Source: an uncultured Chloroflexia bacterium
GTDB taxonomy: Bacteria > Chloroflexota > Limnocylindria > Limnocylindrales > CSP1-4
Direction: 5' to 3'
Assembly (NCBI GenBank): GCA_963746405.1
Contig: CAVVAV010000003.1
Coordinates: forward strand, 933,589-997,588
Length of the DNA stretch: 64,000 nt
Shown here: positions 10,518 to 57,976 of the stretch, one piece after another
Layout of the letters: each line of letters opens with the position of its first letter
Position numbering within the stretch: position 1 is the first letter of the stretch
Notes under the pieces: generated by a model
Seen by the model: only the letters and a program-made list of their open reading frames with translations
The model's database searches: none
Told to the model about the DNA's origin: nothing
Translations under genes and position numbers: made by a program

Positions 10518-12062
10518 ATGGGAGGACAACCGATGGACACACCGGTCCTCGTGGCGGTGGCCGTTGCGGCCGCCGTCGGCGGAGCCATTCTCGGAGCACT
10601 CGCCCGCAGCATGTGGGCATCCCAGGGGATGAAGGCAGCGCAGGCGGAGGCGCGCCGCATCGAAGCGGAGGCTCGCGCCCGCCAGAAGGAGCTCATCCTC
10701 GAAGCCAAGGACGAGAAGCTTCGTCTCGGGCGTGAGGCTGAGGAAGAGGCCCGCGCACGCCGCGGCGAGCTGGCCGTCCAGGAGCGCCGCCTCGTCCAGC
10801 GCGACGAGCAGCTCGACCAGCGGGCGGAGATGCTCGAGGGCCGCGATCGCAAGCTGCTGGATCGCGAGCGCGAGCTCGAGAAGTCCAGGGAAGAGCTCAC
10901 CCGCGCCCTTGGGGAGCAGGTCGCCGCGCTCGAGCGCGTGTCGGGCCTGTCCGCCGACGATGCCAAGTCGATGCTCCTCGAGGCCGTCCGCGCCGAGGCG
11001 GAGCACGACGCCGTCAAGCTCGGCCGAGCGATCGAGCGGGCCGCCCGCGAAGAGGCCCAGGACAAGGCCCGCGACATCGTCCTGACCGCCATGCAGCGTG
11101 TGGCCGCGGACCACACGGCGGAGCACACGGTCAGCGTGGTGCACCTGCCGTCGGACGAGATGAAGGGCCGGATCATCGGCCGCGAGGGTCGCAACATCCG
11201 TGCGCTCGAGCAGGCCACCGGGGTCGACCTGATCATCGACGACACGCCCGAGACGGTGATCCTGTCGGGCTTCGATCCGGTCCGGCGGGAGGTCGCCCGG
11301 ATCGCCCTCACGAAGCTCATCGCCGACGGCCGGATCCATCCCGGCCGCATCGAGGAGGTCGTGACCAAGGCCCGCGCGGAAGTCGACATCATCATGCGCC
11401 AGGCCGGCGAGGCAGCGGCCTACGAGGCGGGAGTCCCGGGCCTGCCAGCCGAGATCATCAAGCTGCTCGGCCGGCTCAAGTACCGCACCAGCTATGGCCA
11501 GAACGTGCTCCGCCACTCGGTCGAGACGAGCAACCTCGCATCGGTCATCGCGGCCGAGATCGGGGCGGACGTCCAGGTCGCCAAGATGGGCGGCCTGCTG
11601 CACGACATCGGCAAGGCGGTCGATCACGAGGTCGAGGGCCCGCACGCGGCCATCGGCGCCCAGATCGCCCAGCGCCACAACCTGCCGTTCAAGGTCATCA
11701 ACGGCATCGCGGCACACCACCAGGAGGTCGAGTACGCCTGTCTCGAGGCCCCGATCGTCCAGGTCGCGGACGCCATCAGCGCATCAAGGCCTGGCGCCCG
11801 CGGCGAGACCATGGACACGTACGTCAAGCGGCTCGAGGATCTGCAGGCGATCGCCGAGAGCTTCGGTGGCGTCGAACGATCCTTCGCGGTCCAGGCCGGG
11901 CGCGAGGTGCGCATCCTCGTCCGACCCGAGGAGATCGACGACCTCACCGCGACGCGGCTCGCGCGTGACATCGTGAAGAAGATCGAGGAGCAGCTGACCT
12001 ACCCGGGCCAGATCAAGGTCACCGTCATCCGCGAGACGCGTGCGGTGGAGTACGCGAAGTAG
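10518..12062 (+). CDS. rny: Ribonuclease Y (membrane anchor, KH and HD domains)
   Basis: 514 aa; N-terminal TM, coiled coil, KH ([13 protein letters not shown]), HD (LLHDIGK...HH). Confidence 0.93.
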
Positions 12063-45012: not shown

Positions 45013-45264
45013 ATGCTGACCGTGCCTGAGGCCGCGCGACGCGCAGGGCGCAATCCGGAGACCATCCGACGATGGATCCGTGAGGGCAAACTGCGCGCCC
45101 GCAAGGTCGGGACGCAGCATGTCCTCGAGGAGGCCGACCTCGCTGAAGTACTCGGAGCGTTCGAGGATACGGTCGAGCTGCCGCCCGAATGGCAGCGAAC
45201 CTTCTGGGGCGGTGCCATGCCGGACGTCGTCGCGGCCGTCCGACGGTCTCGCGCGGGACACTGA
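45013..45264 (+). CDS. Antitoxin, excisionase/MerR-like HTH (VapB-like)
   Basis: MLTVPEAARRAGRNPETIRRWIREGKL HTH; 83 aa; adjacent to PIN toxin gene. Confidence 0.7.
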   Translation: MLTVPEAARRAGRNPETIRRWIREGKLRARKVGTQHVLEEADLAEVLGAFEDTVELPPEWQRTFWGGAMPDVVAAVRRSRAGH

Positions 45265-45265
45265 C

Positions 45266-45670
45266 GTGCTGCTGGTCGTGGATGCCAGCGTGATCGTCCA
45301 GGTCAGCCTCGCGGGCGGCTCGTTGGGGCCGCTCGAGGATCACGACCTCATCGCCCCGACGCTGTTGGCATCGGAGGTCACCTCGGTCCTGTGCGAGATG
45401 ACGCACCGCGGTGAGGTTCCGCATGACCACGCGCGCGTGGCCGTTGGGAGGCTGGAGAGCCTGCCGATCCGCTACGAGCGTCCGGACGGCCTTGCGGAGC
45501 GCGCATGGGACCTCGCGCGATCCCTCGGATGGGCCAAGACGTACGACGCCGAGTACCTCGCCCTGGCGCTCATCAATGAGGCGCCGCTCATCACGATCGA
45601 CGAACGCATGCGACGCGGGGCGGGCCACGTCGTGTCGATGCCGAGTCCGACCGAGCTCGCGGCGATCTGA
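45266..45670 (+). CDS. vapC: PIN-domain toxin VapC
   Basis: LLVVDASVIV (first Asp), later acidic residues; GTG 2 nt after antitoxin stop. Confidence 0.7.
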   Translation: MLLVVDASVIVQVSLAGGSLGPLEDHDLIAPTLLASEVTSVLCEMTHRGEVPHDHARVAVGRLESLPIRYERPDGLAERAWDLARSLGWAKTYDAEYLALALINEAPLITIDERMRRGAGHVVSMPSPTELAAI

Positions 45671-46539: not shown

Positions 46540-47289
46540 CTAACCACTTCCGATAAGGTGAGTTATGTCTGACTGGGGACGGAGATGGTCCGCGGCGGAT
46601 TCATGAACTCGAGACGACCCTATTCTGTGCTTTGGGGTCTCGCCCAGCCGATCGATTAGGGCGTTGAGGCCGCCGGTAAGCCCGAGAGACGCAATCCCTA
46701 AGATGGCCAACAGGACCGCGACGAGCGTCCATCGCCGCGCGGTAAATAGGTCTTGCGCCACACGGGATCCGCTCAGGTACGCGGATTGGGTAGCGCGGCG
46801 TAGTGCCTCAGCTGCGGCGGCTTGGAGCGACGCCTCGGTTGGCTCCTCGTTACGAAGCGACCGCGCGAGGATTCCGAGGCGATCGAGACTTATGCCGCCC
46901 GATTCGGTCAATCCGCTCGCGAGCGACGCTATTGCAATCGCAATCGCCAGACTAACGTCTGCAAGCAGCAAGATGACGAGTGGCGTCCAATCCCAAAGGC
47001 TCGCATATGGCGCAGGGATCACGACTGCCGTAGCACCAAGCGCGAACGGAACCAACGCAAGGAGAAGCGTGAGATGGGTTGAGACCTTGGACTGGAGGCT
47101 ATCAACAGCCCCATCGGCTAGCTCCAGGCTCTTAATCGCGAGCTCTAGGGCTACCTCGCTTCGCCGCTCATCCCCTGCCGCGTCGCGAATCCACTCTGGT
47201 GGCGGTGTTGCCGGAAGTCGCTCAAGCCCTTCAGCGGTTCGTGCATCGCCTGCGATGAATGCGACAAATCGGCGGAGCGTCCCGGCCAC
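46540..47289 (-). CDS. Membrane protein (3 predicted TM), hypothetical, low-GC island
   Basis: GTG start abuts ATP-grasp stop (TAAGTG); hydrophobic segments. Confidence 0.55.
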   Translation of the reverse strand: MAGTLRRFVAFIAGDARTAEGLERLPATPPPEWIRDAAGDERRSEVALELAIKSLELADGAVDSLQSKVSTHLTLLLALVPFALGATAVVIPAPYASLWDWTPLVILLLADVSLAIAIAIASLASGLTESGGISLDRLGILARSLRNEEPTEASLQAAAAEALRRATQSAYLSGSRVAQDLFTARRWTLVAVLLAILGIASLGLTGGLNALIDRLGETPKHRIGSSRVHESAADHLRPQSDITHLIGSG

Positions 47290-48219
47290 TTAACGAGTCC
47301 TCGTTAGCGCTCTAGCGAGTGCTTCCGTGATCCGTCCGTTATATGTATCGTCGAGAAAGAGCCACTGTCCGTTTGGATTCGCTTCGAGAAATACGCTCTC
47401 GCCGCTGCGGCTCACAATCCAGTCTTGGGATGAATACCCGAGCCCGAGGGCGCTCGCCACACGCAGCGCATCGTCGGCAACTCTTGGATGGGCACCATCG
47501 GCCACGACAAAGCGTTGATGATTCTCGGTCTTGAGCCGCCAATCGAGATCCTCGGTGGTTAACGCGGCTACGAAAGCCGCGCGTTCGACTGTTACCACGC
47601 GTAGGTGTGTGGATGCCTCCATGAGCTCTTGCAGGATTACTGGTACTCCGCCGAGGTCACGAAGCTGCTCAGGCCCGACCTCCGTTGTGAACGCGACCCT
47701 GGGAGGATCGTTCGAGACCAGCCCGTAGCGAATTGGCTTAACCACAACGCGACCATGATCGCGAACAAATCGCCGTGCGCGCCGTGCGTCTGACGTAACA
47801 ATTGTCTTGGGAATTCGAAGCCCGAGTGAGTTGGCAACCGCGAGCTGGTAGCCCTTTACCTCTGACCGCTGCAAGACGTGCGGAGGGGTGAGCCAGTCCA
47901 CAGTCGTGTGGGCCGCGAACATCAGCGTTTCGCGCCACTCTTGAATGACAAACTCGGAATACAGACTGTCAACGTCGTCGACTACCACGCGACCGGGCCG
48001 CCTCCAGAACCCGCGCGTTGTAGCGTCTATGAGATGTCGGTTCCCAACGATCCAGTGGGGTGGATCAGGCGTCCAATAGAAAGACGCGGAAGCCAACGTA
48101 TCCCTGGACAACCGAATCGTTCGAGCGCCTAGGCGAAAGAGGGCCTGCTCAAGCGCGTCGCCATGTTCATCCGAGGGGGCCGATACTAGGAGGACTTCAG
48201 CCCCAGCTGGGCTCGTCAT
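47290..48219 (-). CDS. ATP-grasp enzyme, RiPP-maturase-like (graspetide/microviridin-type)
   Basis: 309 aa; LDWR and FLEANPNGQWLFLD motifs recalled from MdnC/ATP-grasp ribosomal peptide maturase families; low GC. Confidence 0.65.
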   Translation of the reverse strand: MTSPAGAEVLLVSAPSDEHGDALEQALFRLGARTIRLSRDTLASASFYWTPDPPHWIVGNRHLIDATTRGFWRRPGRVVVDDVDSLYSEFVIQEWRETLMFAAHTTVDWLTPPHVLQRSEVKGYQLAVANSLGLRIPKTIVTSDARRARRFVRDHGRVVVKPIRYGLVSNDPPRVAFTTEVGPEQLRDLGGVPVILQELMEASTHLRVVTVERAAFVAALTTEDLDWRLKTENHQRFVVADGAHPRVADDALRVASALGLGYSSQDWIVSRSGESVFLEANPNGQWLFLDDTYNGRITEALARALTRTR

Positions 48220-48436
48220 CAGTCGTCTCAGGAGGCTGGCTCCTGGTCAATCTCGTACCGCCAGGGACCTCGCCAGGAACTGATCTAGCAACCCTAGCCA
48301 GCAATGGGAGTCCTCCTCCCACGACTAGGTCAATCGCTGTCAGCCCGGGGTCATCCGATGTCTCGGCTGTCTTGGTGAAGACGGTTTGGCCTTCCGCGTG
48401 GCCTTGGACCTCAACTGAGATCTTTTCGAGGATCAT
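48197..48436 (-). CDS. Candidate precursor peptide/small ORF upstream of ATP-grasp
   Basis: Only ORF in the 345-nt gap; G-rich SD upstream; MILEKISVEVQGHAEGQTVFTKTAETSDDPGL rich in T/S/K and D/E; 3' part rare-codon, may be non-coding. Confidence 0.25.
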   Translation of the reverse strand: MILEKISVEVQGHAEGQTVFTKTAETSDDPGLTAIDLVVGGGLPLLARVARSVPGEVPGGTRLTRSQPPETTDDEPSWG

Positions 48437-48565
48437 GTGTCGCACTCCCGTGCTCCCTCCCCCGTCGCCGGCAGCGTCGGGCCGTCAATCCAGAGTCTAT
48501 CGACCGAACAGTCGGTTTGTACACACTCGCCACTCTGCTCGTGACTGATCCAATACGAATTGCAG

Positions 48566-50888
48566 CTAGGCGAGGTAGGAGCGGACTCTTCCGGGTGCGT
48601 ATAGAAAGCGATCAATCGACGCCGATACGTTGTAGTAGTACGGCGGATGCTCGATGTAGTTCGCCAGAAGCGCCTCGAGGAACGCGGGATCAGCGCGCTG
48701 GGTGATGACAGCCACGGCCGCGACCCGGATTTGTGCACTCTCGCTGTGGAGGAGCGCCTCGAACTCTGAGATAGGCACGTTGCCGTCGGCGCCTAGCGCC
48801 TGAACCGCCGCGTGGACAAGCTCTGCGTCGGCGCTCCCCAGGAGCGAACGCGCAAACTCCGTGCCCCCAAGCCGAAGACTCGCTGCGGTCAATGCTTCAC
48901 GCTCTTCGTCCATCGTGAGCCTCGCGGACTCTGCGAGCAACGGCGCATCACGACGCTCTCCAACCAATGCTAGGGCGGTTGCCACGTCAGCCTTCGCGGA
49001 CCGATTGATGTGCTCCAGGGCCTGTCGGATGAGGTCAATGTCGTCGGCGCCTCGCACGTCGGGGGAAAGCCGAGCGAGCAATTGCGCGGCGGCATTAGTT
49101 CGGCGCCCGTAGAGATAGCCGAACACGCTCTTCTCACCAGCCAGCGCCGGTAGCTCCGCAGCCGCCGAAGAGGCCCACTCATCCTCTGTCTGGGACAGGA
49201 GTTGGCGCGCTTCGTCCGCCATCGACTCGCCGTCCAGCCACGTCAAGGCCTCCCATGCCTCGTGATCAAGCGCCGACCCAGCGGACCGACGCAACTCATC
49301 AAGGGGGATGCTCATTGCCATTAGGCGCGGCCTGAGCGCGGTCGCCCATGGGCTTCGTTCATCGACGAGCCGATCCAAAAGCTGTTGTGCCAAGACTCTC
49401 CGAGCGTCGACGTAGTCCAGGACAAGGTTGGTCAGGTCGGAACTCGCGTCGTCCACCGCGTTGGCAAGCTGATCAACACTACAATTCCCCCGGTTCAGCA
49501 ACTCAACCAGCGCTGCCCGTCGCAACGGAGTCTTTATGCGCCGCTTGATCAGGTTCGCGAGATCGACGTCGTCCAGCAGGGCGACGTCCCGCTGGAGGAG
49601 TTCGCGAGCCCATGGCCTAATGTCGTATCTGTCGCCGATCGCAACGGCCACAAGTGGACTGTGGTCGCCTTGAAAGGCTGCTCTAAGCGCTTGGACATCC
49701 GCGGTGCCGACGTCGTCGGGTGCCCCCTCGACGATTGCACGCAATAGCCCCTCGTCATGCCGCTCGGCCAGACCTGCCAAGTACTTGGTTGCGTTCATCG
49801 AGCGCAATGGATCGGCAAGCAGCTTCACCCATCGCTCGGCCTTTTCGGCCAGTTCTGATTGCGTCGTTTCGTCGTTCGCCCAAAGGTCGCGCGGTCGCAC
49901 GGACATGATGTTGAGCAGACGCAGCGCGCCCCGCGCCGCGGTCAAGTCGTCGCCTTGGGCCATCGCCGCGAGCCGCCTCTCCAAATCGGCTTCTCCGACA
50001 ATTGCCCAACCCGGCACGACCAATTCTGCGACGTCCTCGGACGCGAAATCTGTCGCGAGTGTCTTGAGCCACTGCTCGGCTTCGCCCACGATCAACGAGA
50101 TCTCTGCATGACGACGGTACAGACGGTTCACCACGTGGGTGGGCAAGGCGTCCCCGTTGCCAATTGCGATCGAGAATAGAAGTAGGCGGTCAGGATCAAG
50201 CGAGGTGGAGGGTCGGTCACCGGCGACGACGCGTCGGAATCCATCGAGAACGTCTGTGATCTGTTCCTGTGCTGATCTGCGCTCGCTGTCGGGGTCCTCC
50301 TCTTGCGAACTGGTCGGACGCCCTGCGGCGGAATCGCCGGAGTCGGCAGGGGCGGCCGTAGGTCCGGGAGCGGTCCGGCCTTCCGTCACGGCGCGATCTG
50401 TGACCACGCCCACGAGGTACGCGACGAGCTGTCTATCTAGATCAGGAAGCGAATCGAACTCGCGATACAACGCAAGCTGCTCGTCGCGGATTCGTCCCCG
50501 AAACTCAAGCACACGCTGCAGCCTGCGGACCGGCGTCAGCCTCCTCGCCTTCGAGAAGGCGTTTGAAGAAGAGTCCAATAGCCGGGGTGTGCGCCGTGGC
50601 TCGCCTTCCGACGACTCGTTCGAACTCTTCGGCGAAACCGGAATCGTTAGCCCCGGTATTGGACCCCCACCGTCGGTGAAGTAGCCCGACAAAGATGTCG
50701 CAAGAATCCACCAACGGGTTGATCAGGTCCTGTGGACGACCGAGGTCCGGGGCAACTCGCTCCCAACCGGTTACGCGAATTCGAACGCCCAGACTGACGC
50801 CGCACATTTCCACGACGCGGTCCGCCACAACGCGCACCAAAGCGCGTTCCTCGGGAAGATCACCTGGTGAAGCGATGAATAGTTCCAA
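48566..50888 (-). pseudogene. DUF4062 N-domain + HEAT/ARM-like repeat protein, frameshift near 50533
   Basis: N-term MELFIASPGDLPEER (DUF4062-like, ORF 50505..50888) continues in other frame into 708-aa ORF with C-terminal HEAT-like repeats. Confidence 0.55.
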
Positions 50889-50934: not shown

Positions 50935-51225
50935 CTAATCGAGGTTGGCTAGTCCGTTTCCCGATGGCGTTGTCTTATCTTCGGGCCTCGTCGTGGTCGC
51001 TAGCTCTGGCCACAATCGTCTTTGGAATCCGCTTTCGGCTGGCAGCGCGAGATGGCCATCTTGTCGTCCCTCCTTCGCGCTCGTCCTGAAGTCGCACTTG
51101 GGAAGCCCGGGCCCAGCCGGCCCCACCGTACCTGGGGTTCCAGGCGGGTCGGAGCAGGGCCAGCAGAAACCGGCGACGAGTCGAGCGGACACGCCGGTCG
51201 CCGCCTGGGCCGCGAAACCGATCAC
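50935..51225 (-). pseudogene. Relic fragment of DUF2075-like gene
   Basis: AAQAATGVSARLVAGFCWPCSDP...KCDFRTSAKEG vs AQAATGATARLVAGFCWPWSDP...KSDFWASAKEG in 52553..54478; ~70-nt DNA identity; high-GC patch. Confidence 0.6.
51147..51214. repeat. ~70-bp dispersed repeat copy A (matches 53042..53110)
   Basis: CAGGGCCAGCAGAA(A/G)CCGGCGACGAGTCGAGCGG...GCCGCCTGGGC shared. Confidence 0.7.
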
Positions 51226-52494
51226 TTCCGCTTCACGGCGTCAGCGACGATATCAAGCAGCCGTTTCACCAGATCATTTCCGTCGTCAGCTGTACTTCCA
51301 GCTACTGGCGCTGTGAGAAACGACCGTTTAGCGAGGTCATACTTGAGCTCGTTACGCTTCTCGTCGTCGAGCAACGCGACGAAGGGATCAAGCGCGGTGA
51401 GGTCGAGTTCCGACTTTCGAGCGCGCCACTCGGTCTGCCGGTGGCGGCCTGACTCTGCGAGTGCATAGAGACCGATGCCGAGAAGAGGCAGCGCGACAAG
51501 CAGCCTGCCTGTTAGCCATTGCAGTGTGAACTCTGTGGCGCCGGTAGTGACGATTGTGAAGACTCCCCAGGCGGCAATAGCGACGAAGAGACCGATGCCG
51601 ACCCATCGCCACCGGTCGGCGGCCTTGTGCTCGGATTCGGCTTGGCCCAGATAACCCCCGCTCGCTGCCTCCGCACCCAGGGCACTTAAGACCTTCCGCG
51701 CGTCGTCGCGGGACGCCGTCATGTCTTCGAGCAGGGTTTCAGCGCCTGCGCGGAGCTCCTCCGCGGAAGTGCTTGCAAGTTCACGCTGCTCGGTCATGAA
51801 CGTGGCGTGTTCCTCGGCCGCGCGCGCAGTCTGCTGTCGCGAACTGCTCAGCCCGCTGCGACTCCGCTGTGGAGAACTGTGACTGGAACTGGGCAATCGC
51901 CGCGTCAAGCCGGCTCTTCTGGTTCGAGATCTCAGCCGTCAACTCCGTCTGCCTTGCCGCCAGGGGCGCGAGAGCGGACTGGGCCTCTGCCGTGGCCTGA
52001 TCTACGAGCTGTTCGATCTCGGAGCGCACTCGTGCAAGGGCTTGCTCAAGTTCCGCCGCTCGGTCTCGGTTTCGTCCTGCTTCACCGCGGAGGTCCTCCA
52101 GAACCTCCTCCACGTCCCGCCGAAGCGCCGCGATCGTCTGCCGTGCTTCGCGAGCCGGGCGCTGTAGCCAAGTCGTGAGGGCGTCGAGGACTTGCTCGAG
52201 GTAAGCGTTCGCACTGGTGAGCTGGGCGGCGTCGCCGGACGAGACGTACGCGCTTGTCGCGTTCTGAACCTGGCTGAGTGCAGGCGAAGGTGCGTCGATG
52301 ATTCGCGCCGACAGAAGTTGGGGATCCGCGCTGAGAATGATCGCGCGGGCGACTTCGATACCTGCCCTGAGTCGCTGCTGGTCGTCCCGTTCTTTGTCGG
52401 ATTTGGGGTCCGGCAGTTTGCTCAGAAGTTCGACGAGGGCACGCGTTAGTGCGACCGTCTGACTGCCAGCATGCCGGTCACGCCACTCACTCAT
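51222..52494 (-). pseudogene. Coiled-coil protein with two C-terminal TM helices, frameshift at (GC)n ~51817-51826
   Basis: ORFs 51781..52494 and 51222..51908 join into Q/A/E-rich coiled coil then WRWVGIGLFVAIAAWGVFTIV and LLVALPLLGIGLYALA TM. Confidence 0.5.
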
Positions 52495-52552
52495 CGCAGC
52501 GCCTTACAGAGCGGGAGGGTCCGCAGATAGCGCGGGGTATAGGCGGCACGAG

Positions 52553-54478
52553 CTACTCCTCGTACGTCGCGGCAGCTTGCGCTGCCATATGAGTGTCCGT
52601 GGTTGCGAGTTCCGTTCGGCTCAGGAAGAAGTCGCGCGTCGGGGCGTCCATGAAGTAGACGTAGCAGCCGCGGAGACCGCGGGTCAGCAGGACGCGGTAG
52701 GTGCTCTTGACGTAGCGGGTGAACTCGGCCTCGGTGACGCCGCGGCGGACGACGCGGTCGTGCGACTGGTCGCGCTGGCCGACCCATCCCCCGTCCATCG
52801 GCCGGTAGACGAGGTCGGGGCCGACGATCACGCCGACGTAGTCGAACTCGAAGCCCTGCGCCGTGTAGACGCAGCCCACCTGGTCGATCCCCTCCTTCGC
52901 GCTCGCCCAGAAGTCCGACTTCGGGATGCCGGGGCCGAGCCGGCCGACGCCGTCCCTGGCGTTCCAGGGCATCGACCACTCCCCTACCCTGACGTCCGGC
53001 ACGAGCTGGCCGTCGTCGTCGGGGTCGGACCAGGGCCAGCAGAAGCCGGCGACGAGTCGAGCGGTCGCGCCGGTTGCCGCCTGGGCGCGGATCTTCTGCT
53101 CGAGCTGGCCGATCGAGCCGACGATCTGGAAGTCGAACTCGTCGTCCATCGACCAGAGCACCTGCGGCGTCCGGTTGAGCTCGAGCGTGTTGTCGACCCA
53201 CTGGATGAACGAGTCGGAGCCGTTCGAGCGGAACTGCGCCTCGAGCTTGAAGTCGCGCACCTCGATCGAGCGCTTGGCGGCCTCCTCGCGGATCAGGTCG
53301 GTGCTGCCGACCTCGCCCGGGCGCACGACCTGCAGGTCATCGATGAAGAAGACGGTGACCCGGCTCGAGTCCAGGATGTCGTCGATCTGGGACTTGCCCG
53401 TGCGCGCCTTCGCGGGCGTGAAGCGGCTCGTGCTGATCGTCCGGATGCGGTGGGCCTCGTCGAGGATGGCGACGTCGAGCTTGTCGGTGACGGTCGCGGT
53501 GTCGCGGAAGTACTTGAACAGCGCGCCGGCTCGACCGCCGACGATCTTGCGCAGGTTCTCCGTGAACGCCTTGGAGCCGGTCAGGTGGAGCGTGCTGAGG
53601 CCGCGCTCGGCGAGCTCCGCGACGAGGTTGAGGGCGATGACCGACTTGCCGGTGCCCGGGCCGCCTTCGATGAGGAAGATGACGTTCTGCTCGTTTGTGC
53701 CCGCGTGGCCGACGGCGTCGAGGATGGCGTTGTAGGCCACGAGTTGTTCGTCGAGGAGCACGAAGGTCGGCTCGATGCGGATGACGCGGGCGACGTGGTC
53801 GAGCAGGCGCTTGTGTGGCTTGAACGCAGTCGCGGCGACGCGCTCCAGGATCTCGCCCTCGTCCGGGCCGGCGATGTGCTGATCGAGGAACGTCGCGAGC
53901 GCATCGGACTGGTCGCCGGCAAACGCGGGGTTGGAACCAAGGAGCGCCGTGAAATCCGCGTGGTAGAGCGGAGACATCGGGTCGTGCTGCGCGTAGTGAA
54001 GGTACGCGCAGGCATCGAGGGCGATCGCGCGGTCGTCCGAAAACGCGGGATGGGTATCCAGCAGGTACCGCTGGTACTGCGCGACCTGGCGCGACGGGTG
54101 GAGCGTGTCGCGCGGCTTGCCGCCGTAGTCGACGGTGACGCAGTCGGTGATGTTCGACCGGCCGACTTCGGTCCACTGCTTGAGCTCGACGATCACGGCC
54201 GCGTCGCGGCGCGTGTCGGGGTTCGAGCCGGTGATGAGGACGTCAAGCCGCTTCGAGCTGAGCGGCATCTTGAGTTCGACGAGGATGCCCTGATCGGTCA
54301 GGTCGGCCGTCTGGAGCACGTGGGCCATCGCGCTGAGGCTGTTGCGCCAGCTCGTGACTTCGCTCGGAGATGGTCGGTAGCGGAACTCGTCGAACCAGCG
54401 GTCGCTCAGCATGTTGGCGAGCCGAGCCTGGGTTGCGTCCGCGATGAACTGCCGGGTCGAGCCCTGGTAGAGGTGCAA
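52553..54478 (-). CDS. DUF2075-like protein: N-terminal PD-(D/E)xK-like (NERD-type) segment + SF1-like P-loop ATPase
   Basis: ILVELK / VIVELKQW segments; Walker A IEGGPGTGKSV; Walker B LDVAILDEAHRI; TTG start with G-rich SD. Confidence 0.65.
   Translation of the reverse strand: MHLYQGSTRQFIADATQARLANMLSDRWFDEFRYRPSPSEVTSWRNSLSAMAHVLQTADLTDQGILVELKMPLSSKRLDVLITGSNPDTRRDAAVIVELKQWTEVGRSNITDCVTVDYGGKPRDTLHPSRQVAQYQRYLLDTHPAFSDDRAIALDACAYLHYAQHDPMSPLYHADFTALLGSNPAFAGDQSDALATFLDQHIAGPDEGEILERVAATAFKPHKRLLDHVARVIRIEPTFVLLDEQLVAYNAILDAVGHAGTNEQNVIFLIEGGPGTGKSVIALNLVAELAERGLSTLHLTGSKAFTENLRKIVGGRAGALFKYFRDTATVTDKLDVAILDEAHRIRTISTSRFTPAKARTGKSQIDDILDSSRVTVFFIDDLQVVRPGEVGSTDLIREEAAKRSIEVRDFKLEAQFRSNGSDSFIQWVDNTLELNRTPQVLWSMDDEFDFQIVGSIGQLEQKIRAQAATGATARLVAGFCWPWSDPDDDGQLVPDVRVGEWSMPWNARDGVGRLGPGIPKSDFWASAKEGIDQVGCVYTAQGFEFDYVGVIVGPDLVYRPMDGGWVGQRDQSHDRVVRRGVTEAEFTRYVKSTYRVLLTRGLRGCYVYFMDAPTRDFFLSRTELATTDTHMAAQAAATYEE
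53042..53110. repeat. ~70-bp dispersed repeat copy B
   Basis: See 51147..51214. Confidence 0.7.
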
Positions 54479-54526
54479 CCCCTCCCCTTCCCCGATGGGC
54501 CGCCGTGACGGTCGACGACGTGGTGA

Positions 54527-55582
54527 CTATACGGCCTGATCCGACGGCGGATCCGCCCCCGCGCTGCCAGACATCGGCGTGGTCTTCCCCTCCCCGTCTC
54601 GATTCGTCATCGAGCCTTTATCGCGGCCCGGGCGCGCTGCCCATGGTCCCGTCGCCGGGGCGAGGGTCGTCTCGATGCGGCGCCCCAAGCGATCGACCTC
54701 CGCGACGTCGATCGCGGGCGGAAGCGCTCGGATGCGGGCCAGCAGGTCCGTGTGCGACGTCAGCGTGACACCGGCGATCGACTTGGGGCCGAACAGCCCG
54801 AACTGACCGCCCACGACGCAGATAACGCACTCCACGTGCTCGACCGACAGTGCGGCCCTCAGCGACGCGGCCTGCCGCTCGACCTGCTCGACGAATGTCG
54901 TCGCCCGATGACCCTTCAGGAACAGCTCTTTGCCCCGGACGCGGACGTCACCCGCGTAATGCTTCGTCTCGATGACGATGACGCCGGGCGGGCCAACGAC
55001 GATGTGGTCGATGTTGTCGCGGCCACCCGGCCGGCGCCGGTCGTGGAAGACGTGGAAGCCATCCGCCTCCAGCATGGCGAGTGTCCGCCCGATCTGCTCC
55101 TCGCCAGCCGCACCGATGCGCCAGGCCAGCACATCCGGTGGTTTGGCATACAGCTCGGCGAGGGTCCACGCGAGGCCGGCGAAGATCAGGGCAACGCCGA
55201 GGAGCGGCAGAGTAGACCCTTGTGGCACGAGGGCGATCCCCGCGAGGATCATGACGCCCCCGACGGCGAGGATGTCGGGCCGGCGCCTGCGTATCCGAGC
55301 CTCATGCGCCGCCAGCCGACGCTCATACGTCGCGCGTGTCGAACCGCCCGCCCGTGGCGACTCGATCGCCGTGGTCATGGCCGTGATCGGCGGGGTCGGC
55401 GCCGTTCCGTCCACCGCGGTCTCGAGCGCGCGTGTGCCCCGGCAGGTCGGGAAGTGTGAGCACCCCCAGAAGGCAGCGTCGTCGGCGCGCCGGGTGCGCA
55501 GGATCATGGACGATCGGCAGCGCGGACATATCGGTGGTTCCGACTCAGTCCCGCTCCGTGCAGTCGCCGGCTGGGCGGCCAT
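54527..55582 (-). CDS. NERD-domain protein with N-terminal C4 zinc ribbon and two TM helices
   Basis: Start [11 protein letters not shown] after GGGGGAGGGGAG; CPRC...CSHFPTC zinc ribbon (topo-type); NERD motif [20 protein letters not shown]. Confidence 0.7.
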
Positions 55583-55742
55583 CGCTCCCCTCCCCCGGTT
55601 CGACCCGCGAGGGTCGCTATCGACCCGCAGTGTACGGGAGGGCATCGCGCTCGCTCCCCTCGGCTGCGCGGCGGGATTGCGGATGGCATTCGACGCCCAT
55701 AGGCTTGAGACCAGCCATCCCGCCAGAAAGTCGCCTTCCCGT

Positions 55743-56774
55743 ATGAGCCTCGATGACTTCCCGCGCGTGTCTTTGATGTTCGGGCCGTCGCCTGCGCATC
55801 CGCTGCCACGCCTGAGCGCAGCGCTCGGAGGACGGGTAGAGATCTGGGCCAAGCGCGAGGACTGCAACTCGGGCATCGCCTTCGGCGGCAACAAGGTCCG
55901 CAAGCTCGAGTACCTGGTCGCCGATGCGCTGGCCAACGGCTGCGACACGCTGGTCTCCATCGGCGGGGTCCAGTCGAACCACACCCGCGCTGTCACGGGT
56001 GCCGCCAGACACTTGGGTCTCGGCGCCGTCACCGTCCAGGAGCACTGGGTCGACTGGGACGACCCCGGCTACGAAACCGTCGGCAACATCCAGCTGACGC
56101 GGATCATGGGTGGTGACATCCGGATGAACCCAGCTGGTTTCGATATCGGTGTGCGAGACAGCTGGCGAGAGGCGCTCGAGTCGGTCGAGAAGGCTGGCGG
56201 CAGGCCGTACCCGATCCCCGCGGGAGCCTCCGACCATCCGCTCGGGGGCCTGGGCTTCGCGAACTGGGTGCGTGAGGTCGCTGCGCAGGAGGCGCAGCTC
56301 GGGCTGCTGTTCGATCACGTCATCGTCTGCACCGTCACCGGCTCGACACACGCCGGGATGATCGCCGGGACGGCCCTGGAGGACCGAGGCGGCGGAAGTG
56401 GTCGCCGAGTGATCGGCATCGATGCGTCGAAGACGATCGAGCGGACGCGCGACCAGGTGACTCGGATCGCGCGCGCCACCGCCGAGCTGATCGGCGTGGA
56501 CCGTGAGCTGCGCGACGACGAGGTCACGTTGATGGATGGGTATGCAGGCCCGGTCTATGGCGTGCCCGACGACCAGACGATCGAGGCGATCCAGCTCGCT
56601 GCGCGGACCGAGGGGATGATCACCGACCCTGTCTACGAGGGGAAGTCGATGGCAGGTCTCATCGGGATGATCCGCTCCGGCGATATCCCGCCGGGTTCGC
56701 GGGTCCTCTACGCGCACCTCGGCGGACAGCCCGCCTTGTCGGCCTACGCGCACACTCCGGGACTGGGCGGCTAG
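55743..56774 (+). CDS. acdS: 1-aminocyclopropane-1-carboxylate deaminase
   Basis: Near full-length colinearity with recalled AcdS: FGPSP...[23 protein letters not shown]-Lys, [16 protein letters not shown]. Confidence 0.85.
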
Positions 56775-56879: not shown

Positions 56880-57368
56880 ATGCCCACCTATCAATTCGTG
56901 ACCACTTGGCGCATCAAGGCTCCCATCGAGCAGGTGTTCGCCGAGATCGACGCCGTGAAGGCGTGGCCCGAGTGGTGGCCGATGGTCAAGGCGGTGGAGC
57001 GGCTCCAGGACGGCGATGCGGACGGCATCGGTGCGGTGCACCGGATGACCTTCGTCGGGAGACTGCCGTACCGGTTGCAGTTCGACATGCGCGTGGCGCG
57101 CCGGGAATCGCCGACATCGATCGTGGGCGACGCGACGGGCGAGCTGGCGGGCACTGGTGACTGGTTGCTGCACGAGGAGGGGCAGACGACGATCGTCCGC
57201 TACGTGTGGTCGATCCGCACGACTCGAGCCTGGATGAACCTGCTGGGTCCCCTGCCCTTCGTGGACGGGATCTTTCGGTTCAACCACCACGCGGTGATGC
57301 GCAACGGCCTGCGTGGCATCCGACAGCGGCTGGGCGGGGTCGCCGGGACCTATACGCGCGAGGAGTGA
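56880..57368 (+). CDS. SRPBCC (polyketide cyclase/START-like) family protein
   Basis: 162 aa; Bet v1-like pattern. Confidence 0.6.
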   Translation: MPTYQFVTTWRIKAPIEQVFAEIDAVKAWPEWWPMVKAVERLQDGDADGIGAVHRMTFVGRLPYRLQFDMRVARRESPTSIVGDATGELAGTGDWLLHEEGQTTIVRYVWSIRTTRAWMNLLGPLPFVDGIFRFNHHAVMRNGLRGIRQRLGGVAGTYTREE

Positions 57369-57976
57369 GGGAGACCTCGACCCCCCGAGTCGGCGCGTGA
57401 CGCCTCCGATGGGCGAGGGATGACGTGCAGGACTCGTGCGACGTAGATGCCGAAGTCTTCCATGAACCGCGTGAGGAAAGCCTCGGTGGACTCGTCGGTG
57501 ACCTTGCCGTCCCCGGGGAAGGTCTCCGGTGCGTACTCGATGTAGGCCTCAGGAGCGGTCATCTGGCGGGCGTTGCAGTAGCTGAGGACGCCGCGCAGAC
57601 TCTGCTGCGCCAATGCCGTACCGAGTTGCCCGGGCGATGTCCCGATCACGGCGGCGGCCATCTGGTCGAAGGAGTTCTCACCCCACGGGCGCGACGCCCA
57701 GTCGATCGCATTCTTGAGGGCACCCGGGATGGATCGGTTGTACTCCGGGGTGACGAACAGGATGGCGTCCGAGTCGGCGATCGCCTTCTTCAGCGCCCTG
57801 GCCTCCGGCGGGAAATCCGCGTCGTGGTCCGGGCTGTACAGTGGCAGATCACCGATCGGGATCTCGGTGAACTCGAGATCGTCGGGCGCCAACTGGATCA
57901 GCGCTTTGGAGAGTTCGCGGTTGATCGACGTCGAGGAGAGGCTCCCAACGAAGTAGCCGACTTTGAACGTGCTCAT
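57350..57976 (-). CDS. NAD(P)H-dependent FMN reductase
   Basis: FMN_red family pattern VGSLSSTSINR, TPEYN. Confidence 0.8.
   Translation of the reverse strand: MSTFKVGYFVGSLSSTSINRELSKALIQLAPDDLEFTEIPIGDLPLYSPDHDADFPPEARALKKAIADSDAILFVTPEYNRSIPGALKNAIDWASRPWGENSFDQMAAAVIGTSPGQLGTALAQQSLRGVLSYCNARQMTAPEAYIEYAPETFPGDGKVTDESTEAFLTRFMEDFGIYVARVLHVIPRPSEASRADSGGRGLPHSSRV

Follow-up and report, generated by a model that had tools for sequence, protein, structure and literature searches.

Nhi (SERP2475) of Staphylococcus epidermidis is a single-gene nuclease-helicase that nicks and unwinds DNA, with an activity that depends on the variant of the phage single-stranded DNA-binding protein (Bari et al. 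2022), and it acts as a stand-alone gene in defense islands. Nhi-like (Millman et al. 2022), which consists of a nuclease predicted at the N terminus and a DUF2075 domain and shares no sequence identity with Nhi, is likewise protective as a single gene. ZwsA (Zowangsin; bioRxiv 2026) is a stand-alone NERD-domain endonuclease directed against RNA phages, and NERD proteins are frequent in defense islands. Here, we describe two adjacent genes, encoding a 641-aa Nhi-like nuclease-helicase and a 351-aa NERD protein with a zinc ribbon and a membrane hairpin, in a window of 64,000 nt from an uncultured Chloroflexia bacterium (assembly GCA_963746405.1, contig CAVVAV010000003.1, positions 933,589–997,588 of the forward strand). 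With moderate confidence, we regard them as two independent, probably stand-alone nuclease-type defense genes that lie side by side, at one edge of a variable defense hotspot, in the GC-rich chromosome of a Limnocylindria-like member of the Chloroflexota.

Both genes are encoded on the minus strand of the window, to which all coordinates of the two genes and their domains refer. The NERD gene (54527–55582) was delimited from its open reading frame (ORF), ATG start, G-rich Shine-Dalgarno sequence, Pfam matches and AlphaFold2 (AF2) model. Its ATG is at 55582, just behind the G-rich Shine-Dalgarno sequence GGGGGAGGGGAG, and its stop codon ends at 54527. A spacer of 48 nt read from the sequence (54479–54526) follows, in which the Shine-Dalgarno sequence of the next gene, GGGGAAGGGGAGGGG, stands directly before the start. 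The nuclease-helicase gene (52553–54478; assigned from Pfam, PADLOC and homologs) opens with a TTG at 54478. A preliminary description of this DNA had reported a NERD motif, a topoisomerase-type C4 ribbon and two transmembrane segments encoded 48 nt upstream of the gene for a 641-aa protein with ELK-type nuclease-like motifs and Walker A and B motifs, both genes being preceded by G-rich Shine-Dalgarno sequences. Each of these features was recovered where it had been placed, on the minus strand. No terminator-like or sigma-70-like site was detected in 51000–56500, although such a scan says little in a GC-rich phylum, and scans with Rfam and for tRNAs were empty, indicating that neither an RNA element nor a tRNA integration site is present.

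The N-terminal part of the 641-aa protein forms a PD-(D/E)xK nuclease core (residues ~60–160; 53999–54301), identified from invariant residues and a structural model. The ELK-type motifs noted earlier are the two VELK sequences at residues 67–70 and 97–100. Since E68, D79, E98 and K100 are invariant across 41 homologs, these motifs belong to a genuine PD-(D/E)xK site. The model of this region is confident (predicted local distance difference test (pLDDT) of 84) and matches nucleases of the restriction-endonuclease fold. Residues 266–611 (52646–53683) constitute a superfamily 1 (SF1) helicase/ATPase core that matches nearly the whole Pfam profile SLFN-g3_helicase (PF09848, formerly DUF2075; E = 1.4e-87, profile positions 2–354 of 354). 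The core contains Walker A (GGPGTGKS, 272–279), Walker B (ILDEAH, 338–343, within ILDEAHRI at 338–345) and the SF1-type late motifs TAQGFEFD (539–546) and LLTRGLRG (597–604), and these helicase motifs are nearly invariant among the homologs.

An N-terminal PD-(D/E)xK nuclease with intact residues, followed in a single polypeptide by a DUF2075-overlapping SF1 helicase with Walker A and B motifs, is the organization of Nhi and AbiO. It is also exactly that of the Nhi-like protein of Millman et al., to which the 641-aa protein is likened by architecture alone and not by sequence. The PADLOC comparison proposed in the preliminary description gave partial matches of the 641-aa protein to the models of PDC-S41 (1.6e-18), Nhi (2.6e-13) and AbiO (2.6e-12). 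The nuclease domain and the C-terminal half were left unaligned by the Nhi and AbiO models, which places the protein in a different sequence family, and no full-length match to the Nhi-family hidden Markov models PDLC02372 and PDLC02350 was obtained. The 641-aa protein is thus Nhi-like in architecture but is not a member of the Nhi sequence family. The best PADLOC match, PDC-S41 (64 bits), is a 657-position model of similar length for a single-gene system and is matched by distant family members too; PDC-S41 is itself only a candidate, derived from genomic association. The ATPase/helicase core PF09848 is also that of the group III Schlafens (SLFN5, SLFN11 and SLFN13), and SLFN11 and SLFN12 were structural neighbors of both nuclease models described here. 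The eukaryotic Schlafens differ, however, in having an N-terminal Schlafen-type tRNA nuclease core instead of a PD-(D/E)xK domain, and the resemblance does not imply orthology. By analogy, the mechanism of the 641-aa protein is probably Nhi-like: it would load on phage DNA replication intermediates, then unwind or translocate with ATP, and nick or degrade the DNA with its own nuclease, with no partner required. With an intact nuclease of its own, the protein would not obviously require another.

The 351-aa protein starts with a topoisomerase-I-type C4 zinc ribbon (residues 18–54; 55421–55531), which matched Pfam Zn_ribbon_Top1 (PF01396; E = 1.2e-8, 35 bits versus a cut-off of 32), has the cysteines C19, C22, C41 and C47 and appears in the AF2 model as three short strands (residues 25–52). 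It is followed by a membrane hairpin of two hydrophobic helices (residues ~101–146; 55145–55282). Kyte-Doolittle analysis in 19-residue windows (threshold >1.6, exceeded at 101–105, 110–117 and 123–128) delimited hydrophobic stretches at ~101–121 and 123–146, which coincide with a hairpin of helices that AF2 modeled with confidence (helices 80–118 and 125–145, pLDDT ~90). The NERD nuclease domain, of the PD-(D/E)xK type, occupies residues 157–255 (54818–55114) and matched Pfam NERD (PF08378) with E = 7.1e-18 and 65.6 bits versus a gathering cut-off of 22.1. The NERD motif of the preliminary description corresponds to residues 192–211. The catalytic set is intact, as E161, D181, D192, E205 and K207 are invariant in 12/12 NERD homologs. 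The AF2 model of the whole protein has a mean pLDDT of 81.7, and its structural neighbors are PD-(D/E)xK nucleases. The domain and motif matches of both proteins are far beyond chance. As a basic, Arg-rich stretch precedes the first helix and the loop between the helices is short, both the zinc ribbon and the nuclease domain are predicted to be cytoplasmic, which suggests a membrane-tethered nuclease. Such a protein would most probably bind and cut nucleic acid near the membrane, acting alone. The nuclease models of the two proteins share the same structural neighbors despite having no profile-profile similarity (hhalign of the two alignments, probability 0.4%), and the N-terminal nuclease of the 641-aa protein is not claimed as a NERD domain.

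Of the described NERD proteins, ZwsA, a single-gene defense effector, has its NERD domain, with the catalytic set E/D/E-x-K, in common with the window protein. ZwsA differs in having VHS, DUF647 and S4 domains and in lacking a zinc ribbon and a membrane hairpin; the window protein is likened to it by the NERD domain only, with no implication that it cuts RNA. The NERD domain also weakly matched the N terminus of the NCBIfam model of MAD6, the NERD and kinase protein of the MADS system (5e-6). That match reached 25.3 bits versus a cut-off of 460 and covered the NERD domain alone; the window protein has no kinase, and there are no other MADS genes nearby, the only further match to a MADS model being a weak one to mad8 (1.3e-4) in the Walker A region of the nuclease-helicase. 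Membership of the NERD protein in MADS was therefore rejected. The pairing corresponds to no named system, as the preliminary description had supposed. Shorter ORFs with the zinc ribbon and membrane hairpin but no NERD domain were observed at L013:7398–7829 (the same as L087:8270–8701) and L048:5474–5977, with 28–35% identity to the window protein (L-numbers denote loci and P-numbers homologous proteins and their contigs; L013 and L087 are one locus, as are L011 and L085). In L013, the nuclease-helicase gene has this ORF directly upstream, and the encoded product shares 28% identity with the N-terminal half of the 351-aa protein. These half-length ORFs could be either remnants or a separate small-protein family.

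Conservation of the pairing was assessed from both genes. On the helicase side, the flanks of 84 loci with relatives of the 641-aa protein, with at most 8 kb available on each side, were searched with a NERD-subfamily profile. Of the 83 nuclease-helicase loci other than that of the window, 0 had a full, co-directional NERD gene directly upstream. Full NERD-family genes occurred in only four of the searched loci, with fragments in a few more. Two of the four (L022 and L023) have it on the strand opposite to the nuclease-helicase gene; in L011, where the NERD protein is 50% identical, four genes (SNase, an ion-channel/SHOCT protein, Mrr and HNH_2) intervene; L067 has it 2 kb downstream. When the two ORFs nearest upstream were surveyed with Pfam in 23 loci of the Chloroflexota clade, with neighboring ORFs shortlisted by a filter on the GC content at third codon positions (GC3), NERD was returned for three (L022, L023 and L014), all divergently oriented. 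Directly upstream of the closest relatives inspected (P0001, 93% identical; P0004, 91%; P0005, 90%; P0009, 89%), the genes are unrelated, and on the contigs of P0005 and P0009 a NERD gene or fragment lies 4.7–7 kb off on the other strand. The divergence of the two families is incongruent, with NERD proteins 29–50% identical where the helicase proteins are 71–85% identical. In one clade, NERD genes recur on the opposite strand or at a distance of several genes, which fits shared residence in an island and not an operon.

On the NERD side, metagenomes scanned with just the window's NERD protein gave no relatives, and those scanned with an alignment gave 80 loci, 56 of which had at least 700 nt of downstream sequence and were testable. 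A co-directional DUF2075 gene downstream of the NERD homolog was found in 0/56. Any DUF2075-type helicase nearby was present in 1/80 (L138), on the opposite strand and without an N-terminal nuclease match. The helicase partner was absent beside P0127, a 54% identical homolog located among housekeeping genes, beside P0130, which has unannotated neighbors, and beside P0131, which has the same zinc-ribbon and NERD architecture and is surrounded by UvrD, PDDEXK_4 and SNF2/methylase genes. Nor did any other gene emerge from the metagenomic NERD loci as a conserved neighbor of the family. The co-occurrence of the two families across genomes, on which the preliminary description had staked its proposal of an anti-phage nuclease/ATPase pair, was thus essentially not repeated on either side. 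What stands of that proposal is that both proteins are of the nuclease type, that their setting is a defense island and that PADLOC models are matched by the 641-aa protein; what finds no support is the two-gene module.

The family of the 641-aa protein is very large, with more than 7000 clusters at 90% identity for E ≤1e-10, the best 120 of which are 66–93% identical to it. The closest relatives in one-genome-per-species contigs (68–88%) come from metagenome-assembled genomes (MAGs) of Chloroflexota (uncultured Chloroflexia and Ca. Limnocylindrales). Identity within the Chloroflexota clade is 68–93%, and homologs with 42–53% identity occur in many bacterial phyla, Firmicutes included, and in archaea. 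No conserved partner was found in the 28 loci of the Chloroflexota clade. Outside it, 32 of the 51 distant bacterial and archaeal loci (42–53% identity) with enough upstream sequence have, directly upstream, a small co-directional gene for a MazG-like NTP pyrophosphatase (PF12643, E down to 1.5e-19). These loci are among L027–L084, and the MazG-like gene touches or overlaps the nuclease-helicase start, as in L028 (7636–8001) and L029 (7661–7996), where the helicase begins at ~8001. The same gene was upstream in 0/28 Chloroflexota-clade loci. We found no paper in the literature searched that mentions MazG together with DUF2075, and the MazG-like and nuclease-helicase genes may be an undescribed conserved two-gene unit. 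A second association with a nucleotide hydrolase was observed in two Chloroflexota loci, where an NT5C deoxynucleotidase gene overlaps the nuclease-helicase stop codon (L017:9922–10644 and L020:9922–10539). Some distant homologs are 802 aa long (L028:8001–10406 and L057:8001–10406), with ~170 extra C-terminal residues. On a mobilizable plasmid of Hymenobacter canadensis (L173, NZ_CP114769.1, 2904–6890), a tandem of two DUF2075 genes has as its neighbors genes for a DUF4747 protein and for a site-specific DNA methyltransferase.

The locus is a variable defense hotspot in Chloroflexota relatives, with the nuclease-helicase gene as its anchor and the pair of the window at its edge, and this position supports a defense role of both genes by association. 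The hotspots of related loci, downstream of the nuclease-helicase gene in L001, L005, L012, L014, L022 and L085, contain Hachiman HamA/HamB (L085), a CBASS-type SAVED-PDDEXK effector (L022; PADLOC 6.6e-63), a defense reverse transcriptase (DRT) of type RT_UG32 (L012; 1.6e-71), an RVT_1 gene (P0005 contig), Lamassu LmuA (L014; 2.8e-116), SNase (L005) and several toxin-antitoxin pairs; HNH_2 genes also adjoin family members. L001 encodes a DinG-like PDC-S28 protein (PADLOC 5.9e-293) together with an AAA and S8-protease pair, which presumably resembles IetAS. In the window, the corresponding content is a low-GC block at ~46.5–52.5 kb (GC 0.60–0.63 versus ~0.69 in the flanks; GC3 0.60–0.71). The nuclease-helicase gene (GC3 0.93, equal to that of core genes) and the NERD gene (GC3 0.83, host-like) look native.

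Directly downstream of the nuclease-helicase gene, after a gap of 58 nt, two cargo ORFs on the minus strand (51222–52494) encode a 237-aa coiled-coil protein and a 228-aa membrane protein. Their GC3 is 0.68–0.69 versus 0.93 for the adjoining gene, and they gave only weak SMC/ZorA/LmuB-like coiled-coil matches. The two ORFs overlap by 128 nt in different frames and could be one frameshifted gene, or one of them could have a later start. The rest of the low-GC island (46540–50888, minus strand; delimited by GC, Pfam and PADLOC) encodes a DUF4062 protein, a 708-aa HEAT-like protein, an ATP-grasp protein and a 249-aa membrane protein. The 127-aa DUF4062 ORF (DUF4062, E = 4.7e-7; PADLOC PDC-S60, 5.6e-16) overlaps the 708-aa ORF, which has a weak HEAT_2 match, by 188 nt (48566–50888, minus strand), and the two are either two genes or one frameshifted gene. 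Considered as part of a frameshifted PDC-S60-like gene, the 708-aa ORF had no PADLOC match. At 46540–48219 (minus strand), the ATP-grasp protein, which resembles maturases of ribosomal peptides (TIGR04187, 4.6e-44, below the cut-off), abuts the 249-aa multi-pass membrane protein, which had no family match and whose gene has the same GC3 as the ATP-grasp gene (0.62). The far flank of the hotspot is a conserved pair of an HTH_17-like antitoxin and a PIN toxin (45013–45670, plus strand), assigned from homologs in related loci: homologs of the 83-aa HTH protein (45013–45264) are encoded 1.5–7 kb downstream of the nuclease-helicase in eight related loci, and HTH_17 and PIN are annotated side by side in L001 and L085. 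An SDR gene and the gene at 57350–57976 flank the same region in L048.

Beyond the two cargo ORFs, a displaced and decayed copy of part of the nuclease-helicase gene (residues 465–530) was detected at 51067–51210 on the minus strand (tblastn, 52% identity, E = 1e-10). It accounts for direct repeats between 51146–51210 and 53022–53086 (92%) and between 51068–51114 and 52890–52936 (81%). Comparable fragments occur in L085, where an intact 128-codon ORF (11675–12046) corresponds to residues 518–641 and is nearer to the window allele than to the C terminus of L085's own protein, and in L087 (12046–12238), where residues 494–557 are represented. In all three lineages, the displaced 3′ fragments lie beyond the first downstream cargo genes. 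This pattern is the footprint expected of a single-crossover (Campbell-type) insertion and suggests that a circular cassette was integrated that bore the gene's 3′ part along with cargo. A composition shift in the 3′ part of the nuclease-helicase gene, expected if it had arrived with the low-GC cargo, was not seen: GC3 is uniform along the window gene (0.91–0.99), which lends such an arrival no support and points to no donor of the cassette.

These observations bear on whether either neighbor is a functional partner of the nuclease-helicase. A co-transcribed two-gene defense module, in which a membrane sensor or an initial nuclease might, for instance, act with a cytoplasmic helicase-nuclease, would account for the shared strand, the 48-nt gap with no terminator-like site and the host-like GC3 of both genes, unlike that of the low-GC island next to them. 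It would also give meaning to NERD being the most frequent family in the census of the two nearest upstream ORFs, to further NERD genes no more than 8 kb away in L085, in L175 and on the P0005 contig, and to the zinc-ribbon and hairpin ORF directly upstream in L013. We nevertheless judge such a module quite improbable: the arrangement is confined to the window among the 84 helicase-side and 80 NERD-side loci; the NERD genes of L022, L023 and L014 are on the opposite strand and that of L085 is separated by four unrelated genes; the closest relatives have no NERD gene directly upstream; the two families diverge incongruently; the 641-aa protein carries its own intact nuclease; and the recurrent partner of the helicase family elsewhere is MazG-like. 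The partner might instead be downstream, in the form of a variable, translationally coupled effector, represented in the window by the 237-aa and 228-aa proteins. Co-directional ORFs indeed overlap or abut the nuclease-helicase stop codon in L001, L005, L009, L011, L013, L016, L017, L020 and L048, and the 3′ part of the gene and the cargo seem to move together, as judged from the displaced fragments. Yet the downstream genes have no common family, those that can be identified belong to complete, self-sufficient systems (LmuA, the CBASS effector, DRT, PDC-S28 and Hachiman), and in the window 58 nt lie between the nuclease-helicase gene and the cargo, which differs in codon composition. The pattern is better explained by the nuclease-helicase gene serving as a recombination anchor, and we hold a downstream partner to be highly improbable.

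A different question is whether the 641-aa protein is a defense protein at all, or a conserved chromosomal nuclease-helicase of DNA repair or replication restart that merely flanks the hotspot. The 68–93% identity that it keeps in many MAGs of Chloroflexota, synteny within limits set by the HTH/PIN pair, the SDR gene and the 57350–57976 gene, a core-like GC3, very slow divergence even from archaeal homologs and the lack of a full-length defense-model match in PADLOC all suit a repair function. Such a function is rather unlikely in view of the patchy distribution over many phyla and archaea, the homologs on plasmids beside a DNA methyltransferase gene and a second DUF2075 gene, and an architecture identical to that of the validated Nhi and Nhi-like proteins. 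The repeated adjacency to modification-dependent endonucleases of the HNH_2 type, already noted in the literature, and the recombination of cargo into the nuclease-helicase gene itself also speak for defense. Several points nonetheless weigh against two independent stand-alone defense genes. The Nhi and AbiO models align only with residues 238–426 (positions 180–339 of 470 in the Nhi model), and PDC-S41 (PDLC05014) is matched in three short stretches and not over its full length, the best being residues 531–614 with model positions 550–628 of 657; no PADLOC model covers the 641-aa protein from end to end, and none matched the NERD protein. Sequence comparison of the 641-aa protein with PDB chains detected no solved structure. 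The defense assignment of its family, probable as it is, comes from architecture and context, and the high conservation (68–93% in the clade, 42–53% to archaea and Firmicutes), the GC3 of 0.93 and the syntenic position would equally fit a housekeeping gene. With the 48-nt gap, the shared strand and no detectable terminator, the two genes may be co-transcribed, and NERD-domain genes within ~8 kb in ~6 of ~26 other clade loci allow a loose functional tie. Observed are the domains, the intactness of the catalytic residues, the folds, the genomic context and the lack of a conserved pairing; anti-phage activity, substrates, triggers and the topology of the NERD protein are inferred.

A more far-reaching picture of the family can be drawn tentatively. 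The 641-aa family, distinct from Nhi and very widespread in bacteria and archaea, would have a nucleotide hydrolase as its partner; the Chloroflexota clade would have lost that partner, the highly conserved 3′ end of the gene would serve there as a landing pad for homologous recombination, by which defense cassettes are exchanged and displaced 3′ fragments stay behind, and the NERD gene would be an independently acquired resident of the hotspot. The nucleotide-hydrolase partnership would suggest a defense that couples the unwinding and cutting of DNA with the removal of phage-specific or modified nucleotides.

The analysis removes a false candidate for a two-gene system and assigns the 641-aa protein to the Nhi-like class of single-gene nuclease-helicases, few members of which have been tested. 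It also draws attention to a DUF2075 subfamily of huge size and slow evolution, of which current defense-finder models capture no more than fragments. The MazG-like and NT5C neighbors could point to nucleotide-linked action, and the insertions at the 3′ end to simple cassette exchange at a defense hotspot. If the family is validated, thousands of genomes, many of them archaeal, would gain an annotated defense gene.

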